DNA of 64,000 nt from a virus, in IMG/VR virus record IMGVR_UViG_3300045988_156211. One strand, given 5' to 3'. The stretch's first letter is position 1. Every line of letters begins with the position of its first letter. A model generated the notes under the pieces. It searched no databases. It saw only the letters and a program-made list of their open reading frames with translations, and had not been told where the DNA came from. Below, piece by piece: positions 3,268 to 63,891 of the stretch. A program made the translations under genes and the position numbers.

Positions 3268-3657
3268 TTATTTGTTGTTCTCAATATAAGCTATCTCATT
3301 CAATGATAAAATAGTTAAATTATTATCACTTAGCAGATGTTTAAGATCATCCGGGAATATTTCCAACGGCAATGATAGTTCCTTACCAGCATACAAACCA
3401 TAAGTAATTATACTTCCTACTTTTAAGGTTTTTTTCAAAAAAGCCTCATCTTCGGTTATACTACTAATCTGGATGATTACTCCCTTTTTTGGTTTACTAT
3501 TATCGGCATTACCCGGGATAATAATACTACCACTCTTACTTTCTCCTGTAGGAGAAAGTATCAACACCTTATTTTCACTTGGTACTCCATGACTGGATAA
3601 GATCTCATTGAAACGTAATGCTTGTTCAACGCTAATGTAATTTAAATTTATGTTCAT
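3268..3657 (-). CDS. GroES/Cpn10-like co-chaperonin
   Basis: Pattern VLILSPTGESKSGSIIIPGNA...KKGVIIQ...LKVGSIITYG...LTILSLNEIAYIE parallels GroES (mobile loop, GxVxAVG, VGDxV, ILAIxE). Size is 129 aa. Confidence 0.55.
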   Translation of the reverse strand: MNINLNYISVEQALRFNEILSSHGVPSENKVLILSPTGESKSGSIIIPGNADNSKPKKGVIIQISSITEDEAFLKKTLKVGSIITYGLYAGKELSLPLEIFPDDLKHLLSDNNLTILSLNEIAYIENNK

Positions 3658-3687
3658 AACACTTTATATTTAAGTAATTATTTATAG

Positions 3688-4140
3688 TTAAAAGTTCATC
3701 TTCCTTAGATTGGCATTCAAAGTTCTCAAAACCTCTATACGATTCTCATAAGCTCTACATAAAGATATAAACTTACTAGCTTTCTCACAAGCCTGTATGT
3801 ATCTTTCGCAAAGTGATAAGTATTTAGAGTTAGTTTTGGATTTATTATCTACATAATCATTATTCCATCTAGCATTGGCTTCTTTATAGAATATCCAAGC
3901 ATTAGAATAAGCTTTATCCCTTTCAATAGCTAGAGTATCTCTTTTCTTTATAAGATAATCTCTTACAGTACTCAATATAAACAAGTTAAATGAGGAATCT
4001 CTTAACTGAGTTTCTATATTATTCTTATCTATATGAAATTCTTTAGAGACATCTATATAATAGGTTTTACCCTCTACTTTTACTTTTACGGGTTTTATAC
4101 CTATATCCTTTATATTATGGGTTACTACAGATTTTTTCAT
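3688..4140 (-). CDS. hypothetical protein
   Basis: 150-aa ORF translationally coupled to the polymerase gene (4-nt overlap). No recognisable motif. Confidence 0.6.
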   Translation of the reverse strand: MKKSVVTHNIKDIGIKPVKVKVEGKTYYIDVSKEFHIDKNNIETQLRDSSFNLFILSTVRDYLIKKRDTLAIERDKAYSNAWIFYKEANARWNNDYVDNKSKTNSKYLSLCERYIQACEKASKFISLCRAYENRIEVLRTLNANLRKMNF

Positions 4141-6437
4141 AGATCCTTATCATGTTTATGGTATATTGATTCATACTTGTCCATAAGTTTTGGAAATTTA
4201 TCTGGATATTCCTTAATACTTATAGATTTATACTTCTTATGCTCTTGAAGGTATTCCTCTACTGAGAAATCTGGTTGAAGCATTTTGTTATAATCATATC
4301 CCGGGATAAATGGTAATTCTTCAGCCATAGTCCTACCAACTGAATAATCCATATCCATTTCAACATCATCAATCTGAAAACCGAAGTATGGCTCTGTTAA
4401 AGGGTTTTTAAATATTTGCCACATCTTATTTACAGTCCATACATTTATATCTTTAGGATCAGCATTATAATATACAGCATCATGAACTGTAGCAACTTCT
4501 TTCATATAGGGTAGTTTTCCTTGTCTCATATCCCAATATATAAGGATACTACCAAATAAGGTCATATCAGATGCTGGAGATTGACATGGGAAGTTTAGTC
4601 CCAATCTTACTGCATAAGCTTCCTCATCACTATTTTCAGAATATATTTGAGGTAATCTACGTCTTCTACCAAATAAAGACATAAGATATCCATGCTTCCT
4701 TAAGTATATTTCCTGTTTCTCTTTAAACTCTCTTAATTTTGGATGTTCATTAAAGTATTCATCCATTTCTTTTTGAGCTTCTTGTTTAGAAACTATAATA
4801 CCAGCTTTTGGATCTGACAACTTAACTGCTAATAGATTTGCTCCGATACCATATATCAATCCAAAAGCAGTTTGCTTAGCATTCTTTCTGCGTATTTTCC
4901 AAAGAGTATGTTCAGGATGTTGTTCATCATCATATATTGCAAAAGCTTCATCATATGGTACTTTATATTTTTTAGCAGCAATAGCTAAGTGTGGATCTTG
5001 TCCTTCTGCAAATGCTCTTAGATAAGTTTCATCTCCAGATAGATGAGCCATCATTCTTAATTCTGCCTGAGAGAAATCGGATTCGAAGTATAATTTACCT
5101 GGTTCGGCTACTAATTGCTTCTTTATATTTGGGTCTACCGTAGTTTTAGGTATTTGCTGCATATTAGGTTCAGCAGATGATAATCTACCAGATGTAGTAC
5201 CATGAATAAGATATCGGCCATGTAATCTGTGATCATCCTGATATTTTTCACTCCATCCCAAGATATAGGTTTTATACATTTTTTCCAAACCTCTTAATTC
5301 AAGTAGGTTATCCAGGAATATTGCTTTGGGTGAATCAGGGTTTTTTATCTTTAACCTTAAGTTTGATAGAGTTTCCTCATCCGTACTGGGTTTACCTTTA
5401 TCCGTATATTTCAAAACTGGGAATTTAAATCCTTCATCACTATACATAAGTTGAGGTAAATCATTATTACTGTTTAGATTTACTCCTCTTGTCAGATCTA
5501 ATTCCTTTTTAGAATTATATATCCCAGCTTTAATATTGGATATTTTAGTCAATCTATTAGCTATTTTCTTTTCATTAGAACTGCCATCTGATTCTTCTAG
5601 TTCTTCAATTTCTTTTTGGATAGATTCTATATAGTTACTTACTTTAGTATCTACTAGATATTTACTAAATCTTTTAACCTTTGGCAAATTATAAATATTC
5701 TCATAGGCTTTCTCTATTTTAGGTTGATAATCCTGTAAGAGTTTTTTATTAAATTCAGTATCTATATACAAACCATTCCTTTCAACACATTGAATAACCC
5801 TTGAAGCAGGCATTATAAGATTCCTGAATAAATTGTAAAATCCCAGTTTAATCAGCTTATTCTCTAAGAATATACATAACCTAAAAGTATAATCACTATC
5901 CTGACATCCATATTTACATAGGGGTTCTAATTCCTTTTTATCCCAGGGTATCTTATCGAAATTATCCTGTTTCTCATAATCCCCATATTCAGGTAAATAT
6001 CTCCTAACCATACTTTTAAGATCGTTAGGCTTCTCTTCATTAAGAACATATTTAGCAAGCATACCATCTATAACAGTACCTCTATACCAAATATTATATC
6101 TATCGAATATCTGAAAGTCAAATTTTAAGTTCCAACCCAATTTAACTACTCTGGGATTTTCTATAATATGCTTACCAAAAATTAGCAAAGCTTTTCTCCA
6201 ATTATATCCTTTATCAGTGTACTGTTTTGTCTGAAAATGATCTAAAGGGATAGAACAACCCATACCTGGTTGAAAACATACCGATAGTATAGTTGGTTTA
6301 AAGGTATCATTATATATGGGTTCACTGTTAGTTTCAAAGTCTACAGATGAATATCCAGTAGACTTACAAGCTCTAATTAATTTGTAAAGCTCTTTATAGT
6401 TTCTTATTATGTGATATTTAGTTTCCATATATAACAA
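4137..6437 (-). CDS. family A DNA polymerase with 3'-5' exonuclease domain
   Basis: Exo I is VDFETNS. Pol motifs are TSGRLSSAEPNMQQIP, DFSQAELRMMAHLSGD (motif A), RRKNAKQTAFGLIYGIG (motif B) and VHDAV (motif C). Confidence 0.95.
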   Translation of the reverse strand: MLYMETKYHIIRNYKELYKLIRACKSTGYSSVDFETNSEPIYNDTFKPTILSVCFQPGMGCSIPLDHFQTKQYTDKGYNWRKALLIFGKHIIENPRVVKLGWNLKFDFQIFDRYNIWYRGTVIDGMLAKYVLNEEKPNDLKSMVRRYLPEYGDYEKQDNFDKIPWDKKELEPLCKYGCQDSDYTFRLCIFLENKLIKLGFYNLFRNLIMPASRVIQCVERNGLYIDTEFNKKLLQDYQPKIEKAYENIYNLPKVKRFSKYLVDTKVSNYIESIQKEIEELEESDGSSNEKKIANRLTKISNIKAGIYNSKKELDLTRGVNLNSNNDLPQLMYSDEGFKFPVLKYTDKGKPSTDEETLSNLRLKIKNPDSPKAIFLDNLLELRGLEKMYKTYILGWSEKYQDDHRLHGRYLIHGTTSGRLSSAEPNMQQIPKTTVDPNIKKQLVAEPGKLYFESDFSQAELRMMAHLSGDETYLRAFAEGQDPHLAIAAKKYKVPYDEAFAIYDDEQHPEHTLWKIRRKNAKQTAFGLIYGIGANLLAVKLSDPKAGIIVSKQEAQKEMDEYFNEHPKLREFKEKQEIYLRKHGYLMSLFGRRRRLPQIYSENSDEEAYAVRLGLNFPCQSPASDMTLFGSILIYWDMRQGKLPYMKEVATVHDAVYYNADPKDINVWTVNKMWQIFKNPLTEPYFGFQIDDVEMDMDYSVGRTMAEELPFIPGYDYNKMLQPDFSVEEYLQEHKKYKSISIKEYPDKFPKLMDKYESIYHKHDKDL

Positions 6438-6443
6438 GATTTA

Positions 6444-6465
6444 AGGGTGAGAATATTCTCACCCT
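6444..6465 (-). terminator. perfect 22-bp palindrome / stem-loop between the ThyA-like and polymerase genes
   Basis: AGGGTGAGAATATTCTCACCCT. On the minus strand it is followed by moderately T-rich TAAATCTTGTTAT, so it may act as an attenuator or a protein-binding site. Confidence 0.45.
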
Positions 6466-6471
6466 ATATAT

Positions 6472-62890: not shown

Positions 62891-62990
62891 ATCTGTTGTT
62901 AATTAAAGATTGATAATACGATTAATACTAAGTATACTATGATAAACGTAAGGATTACGAAGAGTACATCCTTTAAGAGTGATTCCTTCT

Positions 62991-63428
62991 TCATTTGAGA
63001 TTTGTTGTTAAGGTTATTGTTATTTGTGTGTTATGTATATTCCCGGTCCTGTGTAATCTGATAAGATTATTATCCTTATCGCAGAATACGATGTGATATT
63101 TATCGAATTCCCGGGATTGATAGGTAGTGGTTTCGAGGAAGTTAACTAGGATATCGCATACTAGGTTCCAAATGAGATTATTATTGAATCTAGCCTGGGA
63201 TGTAGCTTCTTCGTTTCCCTTAAGATTTCGATTTGATAGGGATATTGATAATACTTCGGTATGGAATGGAAGTATAACCATTGGGATTAAATCCAAGTAA
63301 TTCTCTTGATGTTTGAAAGAGTATGAGTTATCTTTTTTGATTTCGATACATGCCTCTTCTACCTTTGAAAGGATTGCATTAAGATCGAGATCCTTGAAGG
63401 TGATCGGTTTGATGGTTGATTTTTTCAT
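62991..63428 (-). CDS. hypothetical early-cassette protein
   Basis: 145 aa, the first gene after the promoter at 63476-63507. Confidence 0.6.
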   Translation of the reverse strand: MKKSTIKPITFKDLDLNAILSKVEEACIEIKKDNSYSFKHQENYLDLIPMVILPFHTEVLSISLSNRNLKGNEEATSQARFNNNLIWNLVCDILVNFLETTTYQSREFDKYHIVFCDKDNNLIRLHRTGNIHNTQITITLTTNLK

Positions 63429-63475
63429 TTTTACTACATTTTAATTGTTATACATATTATTTAATTTTCATGCTG

Positions 63476-63507
63476 CAAAATTAATGCAAATAATTTATAT
63501 ATGCAAA
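63476..63507 (-). promoter_or_regulatory. Bacteroidota-type promoter TTTG-N20-TAATTTTG
   Basis: The minus strand reads TTTGCATATATAAATTATTTGCATTAATTTTGCA, upstream of the ATG at 63428. Confidence 0.65.
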
Positions 63508-63675
63508 TATTTTTGCAACAAATTTATAATTTCAGCTCGTTTGAAGATAGTTTAAGATAGTAGATGAGTAAGATTTGCTCTTTTAGCATATCCCGGGATA
63601 ATTCTAGAGGAGTATTTTTAATTTTAGATAAGATTAGTAAGTTAATAAGTGGGATATTTTTCTAGATATGAGTAG

Positions 63676-63891
63676 TAAGGGGCCTTGTGTCTTTATCTCT
63701 ACGAGGATTTAATATTAAATATACCCTATAAAATATGCCCGGGCTTTAAAGTTTTGGGGTATAATATTGGCCTTAAATCCTTATGCTGAATGGGCCTAAA
63801 ATAATAAAGATAGGGGCCTTAATTCCTTAATAACTTAACCGATTGGGGCTTTAGTTCCTTTTGGTTGGGGTACCCCAAATCCTTAAATCCC
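63676..63891. repeat. array of GGGGCYTT / GGGCTTT motifs plus AAWTCCTTAA motifs
   Basis: GGGGCCTT at 63679 (followed by CTTTATCTCTA), GGGCTTT at 63741, GGGGCCTT at 63813 and GGGGCTTT at 63845. The palindrome GGGGTACCCC is at 63867-63876, and AAATCCTTA occurs three times. Confidence 0.8.

Follow-up and report, generated by a model that had tools for sequence, protein, structure and literature searches.

Why would a virus with an A/T-rich genome carry the palindrome CCCGGG many times over, when phages usually purge short palindromes? The question is raised by IMG/VR record IMGVR_UViG_3300045988_156211, a stretch of 64,000 nucleotides of phage DNA (hereafter the window) with a G+C content of 33.2%. 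In this window CCCGGG, the SmaI/XmaI site, occurs 20 times, while 1.3 copies are expected from base composition (order 0). A preliminary description, made from the letters alone, had listed these 20 positions, all of which proved exact, and had read the excess as selection for a DNA-level function with three candidates, namely the target of a phage C5-methyltransferase-like enzyme, a nicking, packaging or recombination signal, or a protein-binding site.

CCCGGG is over-represented at the DNA level

We compared the observed count with several null models. Dinucleotide-preserving shuffles of the window gave a mean of 1.73 copies and a maximum of 6, none of 100 reaching 20, and Markov models of orders 1–3 predicted 1.8–4.1. 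For the coding sequences (CDS), which hold 18 of the copies, synonymous codons were shuffled within genes (67 genes, 1000 runs), a procedure that keeps each protein and each gene's codon counts; the mean was 1.43 (standard deviation 1.14, maximum 5). The preliminary description had allowed that codon- and dinucleotide-preserving shuffles might give comparable counts, and neither reached the observed ones. An order-4 Markov model predicts 11 copies, a value that is circular and thus invalid, because 20 of the 24 CCCGG and 20 of the 32 CCGGG words sit inside the sites themselves. Exact-protein look-ups showed the window to be part of a circular assembly of 82,467 bp (ena:ERZ27262007:k109_95502 and others), obtained from human gut metagenomes. 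The 18.5 kb beyond the window adds 11 sites, giving 31 genome-wide, 28 of them in coding DNA and 3 in the 6.3 kb of non-coding DNA. When all 4096 hexamers were subjected to the codon-aware test on the CDS of the whole genome, CCCGGG was the top outlier (28 vs 2.66, z=16), and the next unrelated hexamer reached z ~6.

The sites are read in every frame. Specifically, nine window sites are read as xxC CCG GGx, three as CCC GGG and six as xCC CGG Gxx, and two are intergenic; 12 of the 18 coding sites encode Pro-Gly. This agrees with the earlier statement that all frames, genes on both strands and non-coding DNA are involved, and the genes then named as carriers (PolA, sheath, major capsid protein (MCP), DUF5675 lysin-like, tape measure, baseplate wedge and helicase) were rightly attributed. 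Also borne out were the absence of the other all-GC palindromic hexamers, with CGGCCG seen once, and the lack of CCCGGG at 13.5–24.5 kb and 46.8–55.0 kb, while the count of about 67 CCGG had to be raised to 69. The two 12-mers TATCCCGGGATA reported for the window are real, with coordinates that had been given one base too high (corrected in Table 1), and a third copy lies in non-coding DNA outside the window.

These counts bear on the reading of the excess as a by-product of codon usage, amino-acid content, base composition, a repeat or an assembly artefact. The preponderance of Pro-Gly and the order-4 expectation would speak for it, the latter being circular. The reading is refuted by the synonymous shuffles and by enrichment in three frames, in both orientations and in non-coding DNA. 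Additionally, the flanks differ among copies apart from an A/T bias, which shows that the sites are not carried by a longer repeat, and identical sites are present in independent ENA, Logan and IMG/VR assemblies. We regard the probability of such a by-product as practically negligible. The CCCGGG excess is a DNA-level signal, independent of codon, dipeptide or composition effects.

The signal is specific to the hexamer and unevenly distributed. Once CCCGGG is removed, no enrichment was found for the broader words CCGG, CCSGG, CCWGG, CYCGRG, GGGCCC and gapped CCC-N-GGG, nor for other CCNNGG words, CCTGGG and CCCAGG excepted. The spacing of the 31 sites is Poisson-like (CV, the coefficient of variation, 1.0) and shows no periodicity, though the sites are few for a sensitive test. 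Among the positions where CCCGGG could be encoded synonymously, 28 of 128 are occupied overall; in the early/accessory regions 14 of 27 are, and in the structural block 7 of 68. A weak force per site, countered by codon-usage constraint, would give this pattern, as would a faster evolution of accessory genes. Two minor features of the distribution were also observed. Coding sites fall in the first 35% of the gene in 3 of 28 cases, where 30% of the possible positions lie (p=0.036; post hoc and weak). Outside the window, three CCCGGG (positions 15043, 15305 and 15566 of the remaining part; ~5466–5989 of locus L163) are spaced by 262 and 261 bp and fall in two adjoining small early genes, one of which encodes a phrog_8 helix-turn-helix (HTH) regulator, the sole HTH type found.

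Flanks, variants and turnover of the sites

The element extends beyond the hexamer. A or T occupies flank position +1 in 89% and +2 in 94% of the sites, compared with 63–65% after generic NNNGGG (p=5e-6 and 8e-8), and G is never found at +1; the same bias recurs at the CCCGGG of the sister lineage (introduced below) and of distant relatives. Since A/T flanks are found on both sides, the element is about 10 bp long, WW-CCCGGG-WW. Two one-off variants are enriched as well, CCTGGG (21 vs 7.65, z=5.7) and CCCAGG (19 vs 10.2, z=3.0), so that both orientations are favoured, and the remaining one-off neighbours of CCCGGG are neither enriched nor depleted in the codon-aware test. The variants arise by synonymous choices adjoining invariant codons for Trp (TGG) or Leu-Gly, which relatives show to be ancestral, for instance GCA TGG GTA to GCC TGG GTT and GAT TTA GGT to GAC CTG GGT. 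Accordingly, where Trp is followed by G, the codon before it is NCC in 11 of 24 cases, compared with 5 of 36 where another base follows (p=0.008). Decay of CCCGGG by deamination of 5-methylcytosine was considered as a source of the variants and rejected, given that the Trp and Leu codons are ancestral and it is the neighbouring codons that changed. The graded, symmetric CC-Y-R-GG preference, with C·G best and both orientations used, leads us to infer that a protein with two-fold symmetry reads CCCGGG as duplex DNA.

To place the phage, we matched its gene content, gene order and size to the published description of 'Flandersviridae', a candidate family of human gut phages with genomes of ~85 kb, whose hosts are Bacteroides and Parabacteroides and whose genomes carry, in order, a sheath/baseplate/portal/MCP/TerL block, DnaB, DnaG, PolA and ~20 kb of open reading frames (ORFs) of unknown function (Benler et al. 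2021, PMC8008677). The genome has a structural block with a contractile tail (sheath, baseplate), portal, MCP and TerL, a replication and recombination set (DnaB, Toprim primase, helicase, PolA, gp32-like, RecA/UvsX-like and SbcCD-like proteins) and ~20 kb of ORFs without assigned function, and by these features it appears to fit the family. Its sister lineage, represented by 3300045988_109691 (= ORRQ01000290) and ERZ28595965 scaffold_115, is 85–88% identical to it; the next clade out is represented by IMGVR 3300045988_148323 (hereafter 148323), and IMG/VR holds hundreds of further relatives at ~70% PolA identity.

The excess is graded across these relatives. In the sister lineage CCCGGG is again the top hexamer (11 vs 1.0, z=10.8), which supports the expectation of the preliminary description that close relatives would be enriched too. 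In 148323 there are 12 copies in 74 kb, a ~3–4x enrichment, and the distant relatives together hold 423 vs 224 expected (order 1), a sample of them giving 59 vs 21.5 under the codon-aware null. There is thus a family-wide baseline excess of ~2–4x in distant relatives vs 10–15x in the window lineage. No excess was seen in three cultured Bacteroides phages from other families (crAss001, 0 in 100 kb; B40-8, 3 vs 2.6; B124-14, 2 vs 3.0). The factor behind the excess therefore tracks the phage family and not the host genus, with the reservation that the host strains differ. In the tail-anchored (L174–L244) and DnaB-anchored (L257–L314) loci of distant relatives, other palindromes are more mildly in excess, namely CTGCAG (L209, 29 vs 13.2, z=5.7; pooled ratio ~1.9–2.1) and GATATC (L297, 26 vs 11.9, z=4.6); L297 also has a strong excess of the non-palindromic AGACCC (18 vs 2.9).

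Individual sites turn over (Table 1). Of 22 sites that can be aligned to the sister, 11 are common and 11 are window-only, and a further 7 are sister-only. The resulting conservation of 0.50 does not exceed the background of 0.41 for hexamers at the same divergence, so that the second part of the expectation about relatives, conservation of the sites themselves, did not hold. A strain of 97% identity keeps nine of nine sites, where ~0.85 per site is expected by arithmetic from 97.25% identity, and polymorphism among strains of 99–100% identity was uninformative. Wherever an outgroup aligns, a lineage-specific site is absent from it, and such sites are therefore gains; no clear loss was found among the lineage-specific sites with an aligned outgroup. 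The single ambiguous case is a sister site at genome position 57010, where 13 distant relatives have AAC CCG GGC. The oldest site is that at 13543, present as ACC CGG GAR in 28 of 58 distant relatives.

The gains run against the A/T bias of the genome, often take several steps and are mostly synonymous. The earlier claim of selection for a DNA-level function is thereby sustained as to the signal, which is built by mostly synonymous substitutions as either selection or a selection-like drive predicts. AGA to CGG is seen five times, GCT AGA GAA became GCC CGG GAG at two separate loci, TAAA became CCGG within an otherwise conserved block, and A to C and T to G changes contributed as well. Several gains alter the encoded amino acids (VG or QG to PG, K to R, NQN to YPG). 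One gene carries a site in the window and another, 12 bp away, in the sister, and each lineage is unconverted at the other's position. Distant relatives repeatedly place CCCGGG on the same Pro-Gly dipeptides in a different register, as in the helicase, where some read TAT CCC GGG at the position of site 11689. The picture from these alignments is of an ongoing CCCGGG accumulation, out of equilibrium, which started before the window and sister lineages split and continues in both.

Table 1 CCCGGG sites and candidate reader or modifier genes in the window
Feature	Position	Strand	Gene and reading	Relatives or database match
CCCGGG	3512..3517		Cpn10-like gene, ATC CCG GGT (Ile-Pro-Gly)	common to sister; most distant relatives IPE/IPD
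CCCGGG	4300..4305		PolA, ATC CCG GGA, within TATCCCGGGATA 4297-4308	common to sister; distant relatives ATT CCG GGT / ATT CCT GGG, identical amino acids
CCCGGG	8506..8511		dUTPase_2-like gene, ATC CCG GGA	common to sister; relatives ACC CCA GGT or similar
CCCGGG	9987..9992		137-aa gene 9843-10256, CCC GGG (Pro-Gly)	window-only gain; sister CAA GGA, distant relatives GTT GGT (non-synonymous change)
CCCGGG	11689..11694		helicase, TAC CCG GGC	window-only gain; sister TAC CCT GGT, outgroups TAT CCT GGN
CCCGGG	12323..12328		helicase, ACC CGG GTA (Thr-Arg-Val)	common to sister; outgroups ACC AGA / ACC CGA
CCCGGG	13543..13548		gene 13061-13897, GCC CGG GAA	common to sister
CCCGGG	24479..24484		baseplate wedge gene, ACC CGG GAA	window-only gain from ACT CGA GAA
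CCCGGG	27439..27444		gene 26504-28000, ACC CGG GTT	window-only; sister ACC AGA GTA, two-step AGA to CGG
CCCGGG	30057..30062		tape measure gene, ACC CGG GAT	window-only; sister ACC AGA GAT
CCCGGG	32426..32431		gene 32056-32838, TAC CCG GGA	window-only; sister TAT CCC GAA, 148323 TAT CCG GGT
CCCGGG	34413..34418		tail sheath gene, TAC CCG GGA	common to sister
CCCGGG	39819..39824		tail-fibre-like gene 39174-40517, CCC GGG	region not alignable with sister
CCCGGG	46761..46766		major capsid gene, CAC CCG GGA	common to sister; 148323 CAT CCG GGA, one base off
CCCGGG	55021..55026		DUF5675/YkuD-like gene, GTC CCG GGA	window-only; sister GTC CCA GGA
CCCGGG	57311..57316	+	zinc-ribbon gene 57089-57376, CCC GGG	common to sister
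CCCGGG	58884..58889	+	gene 58598-59128, GCC CGG GAT	gene absent from sister
CCCGGG	63110..63115		gene 62991-63428, TCC CGG GAA	common to sister
CCCGGG	63592-63597		non-coding, within TATCCCGGGATA 63589-63600	inside 36-nt block 63577..63612, identical in sister
CCCGGG	63738..63743		non-coding	window-only; sister has GCATAGGC
Thymidylate-synthase-like gene	6472-7248	-	adjoins the dUTPase-type genes	
dUTPase_2-like gene	8229-9077	-	contains the CCCGGG at 8506	
dUTPase-like gene	9083-9862	-		
C5-cytosine methyltransferase-like gene	53523-54542	-	divergent, 339 aa	PF00145 E=1.6e-11
Pyr_excise/MSMEG_6728-like gene	56374-56832	+	putative DNA glycosylase fold	

The form of the element and its turnover suit a non-enzymatic DNA-binding protein of the phage or the host, which would bind as a dimer to WW-CC(C/T)(G/A)GG-WW and raise fitness with the number of bound sites, be it a regulator, an architectural protein or a protective one comparable to SPO1 TF1. 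A footprint of ~10 bp with A/T flanks would be natural for such a protein, as would an affinity-like grading (CCCGGG far above CCTGGG and CCCAGG, and these above the rest). The local replacement 12 bp away resembles the turnover of binding sites, one non-coding site lies in the 36-nt block that is identical in the sister, and occupancy peaks in the early/accessory regions. However, the sole HTH protein found, which is encoded outside the window, is without a relative in the 148323 clade, and no other candidate was found; a half-site of 3 bp is unusually short for a regulator, and most sites are intragenic with their Poisson-like spacing. We regard a binding protein of this kind as a serious possibility, if an unlikely one.

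The same genome strongly avoids other words. GAGTC is found once vs 33.6 expected and GACTC four times vs 25.7, and no CDS contains GAGTCT; there is one copy of GCGC in 82 kb vs 11.7 expected, two of CGCG and none of ATGCAT. Avoidance of GCGC is family-wide, with ratios of 0.11–0.39 in relatives (L001–L324). The near-total purge of GAGTC is limited to the window and sister lineages, being partial in 148323 and mild in distant relatives. GAGTC/GACTC is the PleI/MlyI-type word, and the distribution of its avoidance suggests a lineage-specific host restriction system. The intensification of CCCGGG coincides with this lineage-specific host signature, which is a correlation only. Avoidance of Type II restriction sites concerns the same type of word as CCCGGG, but the excess of ~10–15x seen here is the opposite of depletion.

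Candidate readers of the sites

The properties of CCCGGG recall the highly iterated palindrome HIP1 (GCGATCGC) and the alternate HIPs (GGCGCC, GCCGGC and GCsGC) of cyanobacteria. In both cases a GC-rich short palindrome is many-fold over-represented, appears between genes as well as within them in every reading frame, and has spread by substitution and not by a mobile element. We took an at least 10-fold excess over composition- and codon-aware nulls as the mark of a HIP-type element, and CCCGGG shows such an excess over both (20 vs 1.7 and 18 vs 1.43). Both HIP genomes and the phage encode a cytosine methyltransferase-like gene, the phage enzyme being cognate to CCCGGG only as a candidate. 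Alternate HIPs arise sporadically in cyanobacteria with a cognate methyltransferase, and other strains with the same methyltransferases are without them (PMC4390886). The differences are also clear. HIPs reside in cellular chromosomes, whereas the phage is an 82-kb virus with a 6-bp word in A/T flanks; its density is 1 per 2.7 kb, while HIP1 saturates at ~1 site per 1000 nt in Elhai's model (PMC4390886); and HIP1 sites show periodic spacing and a conservation that exceeds background (PMC5861425), whereas the phage sites are conserved at background level and have Poisson-like spacing.

The candidate methyltransferase of the phage is divergent. Its Pfam match to PF00145 scores 44.6 bits (cut-off 22), and a regex scan for the canonical motifs missed the gene that Pfam detected. 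Across 22 family members the protein has CAGQG as motif I, SPDCG as motif IV, ENLP as motif VI and QKSRNR as motif VIII, for which the canonical C5-methyltransferase motifs are FxGxG, PC, ENV and QxRxR. The gene is part of the family core, with the terminase as its neighbour in almost all relatives, and those of at least 60% identity also share a conserved variable region. A family-wide enzyme of this type would fit the family-wide baseline excess, for which it could account. A further gene that may act on cytosine is a thymidylate-synthase-like gene, which lies next to dUTPase_2-like and dUTPase-like genes. The best PDB relatives of the thymidylate-synthase-like protein include CMP 5-hydroxymethylase, and in our alignment it reads Asp at the position of ThyA Asn177. 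In ThyA, Asn177 specifies uracil, and Asp at this position specifies cytosine in dCMP/CMP hydroxymethylases. The phage may accordingly make 5-hydroxymethyl- or 5-methyl-dCMP and carry modified cytosine.

We tentatively favour, as possible though short of probable, the reading that CCCGGG is a HIP-type iterated palindrome whose reader or modifier is the family's conserved divergent C5-methyltransferase-like enzyme. The element is an isolated CCCGGG core in A/T flanks, with CCTGGG/CCCAGG as its second-best form, and its reader would be a protein of two-fold symmetry acting on double-stranded DNA. New sites arise continually through point substitutions wherever coding permits (Pro-Gly; Ser/Thr/Ala/Pro-Arg-Val/Ala/Asp/Glu/Gly), and an amino-acid change is now and then accepted as the price of a site. 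Every added site would bring either a slight advantage or a slight bias in transmission. The C5-cytosine methyltransferase-like enzyme encoded beside the terminase would be the reader, and the sites would be, or turn into, cytosine-modification marks. Their density would have been driven up strongly in the window lineage after a host change, of which the GAGTC purge would be the mark. Both the identity of the reader and the benefit of the sites are what we infer from these combined features.

Several points weigh against this HIP-type reading. A strong preference for A/T flanks, together with a graded second-best motif, would be expected of a binding protein more than of a Type II modification enzyme, and we know of no benefit of additional methylated sites. 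The putative methyltransferase has an insertion in motif IV, P-x-C where the canonical form is P-C; its match to NCBIfam TIGR00675 (dcm), at 36.2 bits, falls below the cut-off of 100.65, and a PDB sequence search with the protein found no detectable relative to indicate its specificity. Relatives with ~2x excess have kept both the gene and its variable region, and the methyltransferase alone therefore cannot explain the lineage-specific 10–15x, whose intensity must depend on a further factor. If all cytosines were replaced before replication, a C5-methyltransferase would be left without a substrate. Finally, existing sites are kept close to the hexamer baseline, unlike those of HIP1 (PMC5861425).

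The near-background conservation just mentioned would be expected from a drive that brings the phage no benefit, a reading that was not among the three functions proposed in the preliminary description. Methylation-linked repair or conversion, either Vsr-type T:G patch repair or a methyl-directed ratchet, would create sites neutrally. Consistent with this, the changes lead overwhelmingly to gain of the site, the count lies far from its equilibrium, and a sporadic, lineage-specific intensity despite a shared methyltransferase matches Elhai's alternate HIPs (PMC4390886). The Pyr_excise-like gene, which might supply a glycosylase, occurs in the window and sister lineages alone, ~70 other relatives that cover the region being without it. 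It is lacking in 148323, yet 148323 is still ~3–4x enriched, and a PDB sequence search with the protein gave nothing useful; a UV-dimer glycosylase would in itself be odd in a gut phage. The simple Vsr form was rejected: CCTGGG/CCCAGG are enriched, TCCGGG, CTCGGG, CCCGAG and CCCGGA are not depleted, and many gains need transversions or two to four changes, as in A to C, AGA to CGG and TAAA to CCGG. T:G repair cannot build CCTGGG, because this word arose by A/T to C changes beside fixed Trp codons. No Vsr-family match was found in the scanned proteins or the precomputed Pfam tables. These objections concern the simple Vsr form; neutral drive as a whole, including the broader ratchet, seems to us quite unlikely.

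Two bolder readings can be stated. CCCGGG could be a self-expanding virus-borne word, for which a phage-encoded reader, be it the divergent C5-methyltransferase-like protein or some other partner, biases repair or recombination towards the site, or a palindromic self-mark that silences a default-on host nuclease. We consider this pair unlikely.

Another idea takes CCCGGG as a Chi-like word that would weaken a default-on nuclease or promote recombination through a host AddAB/RecBCD-type or phage SbcCD/UvsX system, each copy protecting the DNA and gaining a gene-conversion advantage. Chi-like words are, to our knowledge, the sole class of short word that phages gain by accumulating, and an additive per-site benefit, directional gain, partly active one-off variants and host dependence would all follow. 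The phage also relies on recombination genes (RecA/UvsX-like, gp32-like and SbcCD-like), and the intensity of the excess tracks the lineage-specific restriction-avoidance profile defined by GAGTC and GACTC. On the other hand, all characterised Chi sequences known to us are asymmetric and read on a single strand, whereas CCCGGG is perfectly palindromic and its asymmetric variant is in excess whichever way it lies relative to transcription. Moreover, the three other Bacteroides phages are without excess, which follows the phage family and not the host genus. This makes a Chi-like role improbable in our view.

Relation to known words and further features of the genome

Besides HIPs, two known systems invite comparison. 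In E. coli, Vsr/Dcm leaves an excess of CCWGG and a deficit of CTWGG. CCCGGG shares with this footprint the excess of a cytosine-methyltransferase-type word in coding DNA, but the magnitude in the phage is far larger, the deficit of T-variants is missing, these variants being enriched, and the gains go beyond T to C and A to G. Chi and the uptake signal sequences (DUS/USS) accumulate genome-wide because every copy is useful or is passed on preferentially; like CCCGGG, they are short words whose copies turn over and whose one-off variants are partly favoured. These words are asymmetric, with Chi biased in orientation, whereas CCCGGG is palindromic and its variant is enriched in both orientations.

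Iterated palindromes themselves are already known; what is new is one in a virus, caught while expanding. The genome gains one palindrome while purging three others, which indicates that phage words can come under positive as well as negative selection. The function of HIP1 in cyanobacteria has resisted explanation for about 30 years, and the phage offers a small model for iterated palindromes that is abundant in the human gut and in which every site can be recoded synonymously. Should the sites mark modification or protective binding, they would point to an unrecognised layer of phage–host conflict in Bacteroidales. For uncultured phages, enriched and avoided motifs taken together could provide a signature of lineage and host. 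A self-expanding word or a self-mark would represent a new class of phage–host or intragenomic interaction and, if true, the 82-kb genome would be the first tractable model for the HIP1 problem.

Searches around the genome returned little. With 24 kb of the window as query, no near-identical match came from the GenBank phage collection, nor did a scan of a genome-contig collection with the MCP for a host find any, and a scan of JGI metagenomes recovered only a sister contig and one short near-identical fragment. PHROGs, NCBIfam and Pfam yielded almost no matches for ~30 accessory proteins, and searches of the window for tRNA genes and Rfam families found none. Literature searches on CCCGGG excess in phages and on CCCGGG methylation in Bacteroides brought up nothing relevant.

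Some further features of the genome were observed. Two long stretches of the window are without an ORF of at least 80 aa, 60703–61567 (865 nt) and 55867–56373 (507 nt). The non-coding DNA at 63670–63900 contains several degenerate GGGGCCTTAAWTCCTTA-like copies, and ATGCAAAT repeats lie at 63470–63510; both adjoin clustered CCCGGG sites. The non-coding stretch with these words and repeats may be an origin or a regulatory region. Additionally, poly-A runs are strongly under-used on the coding strand of the whole genome relative to synonymous shuffles (AAAAAA, 78 vs 175; AAAAAAAA, 0 vs 21), a deficit that may reflect avoidance of slippery runs.

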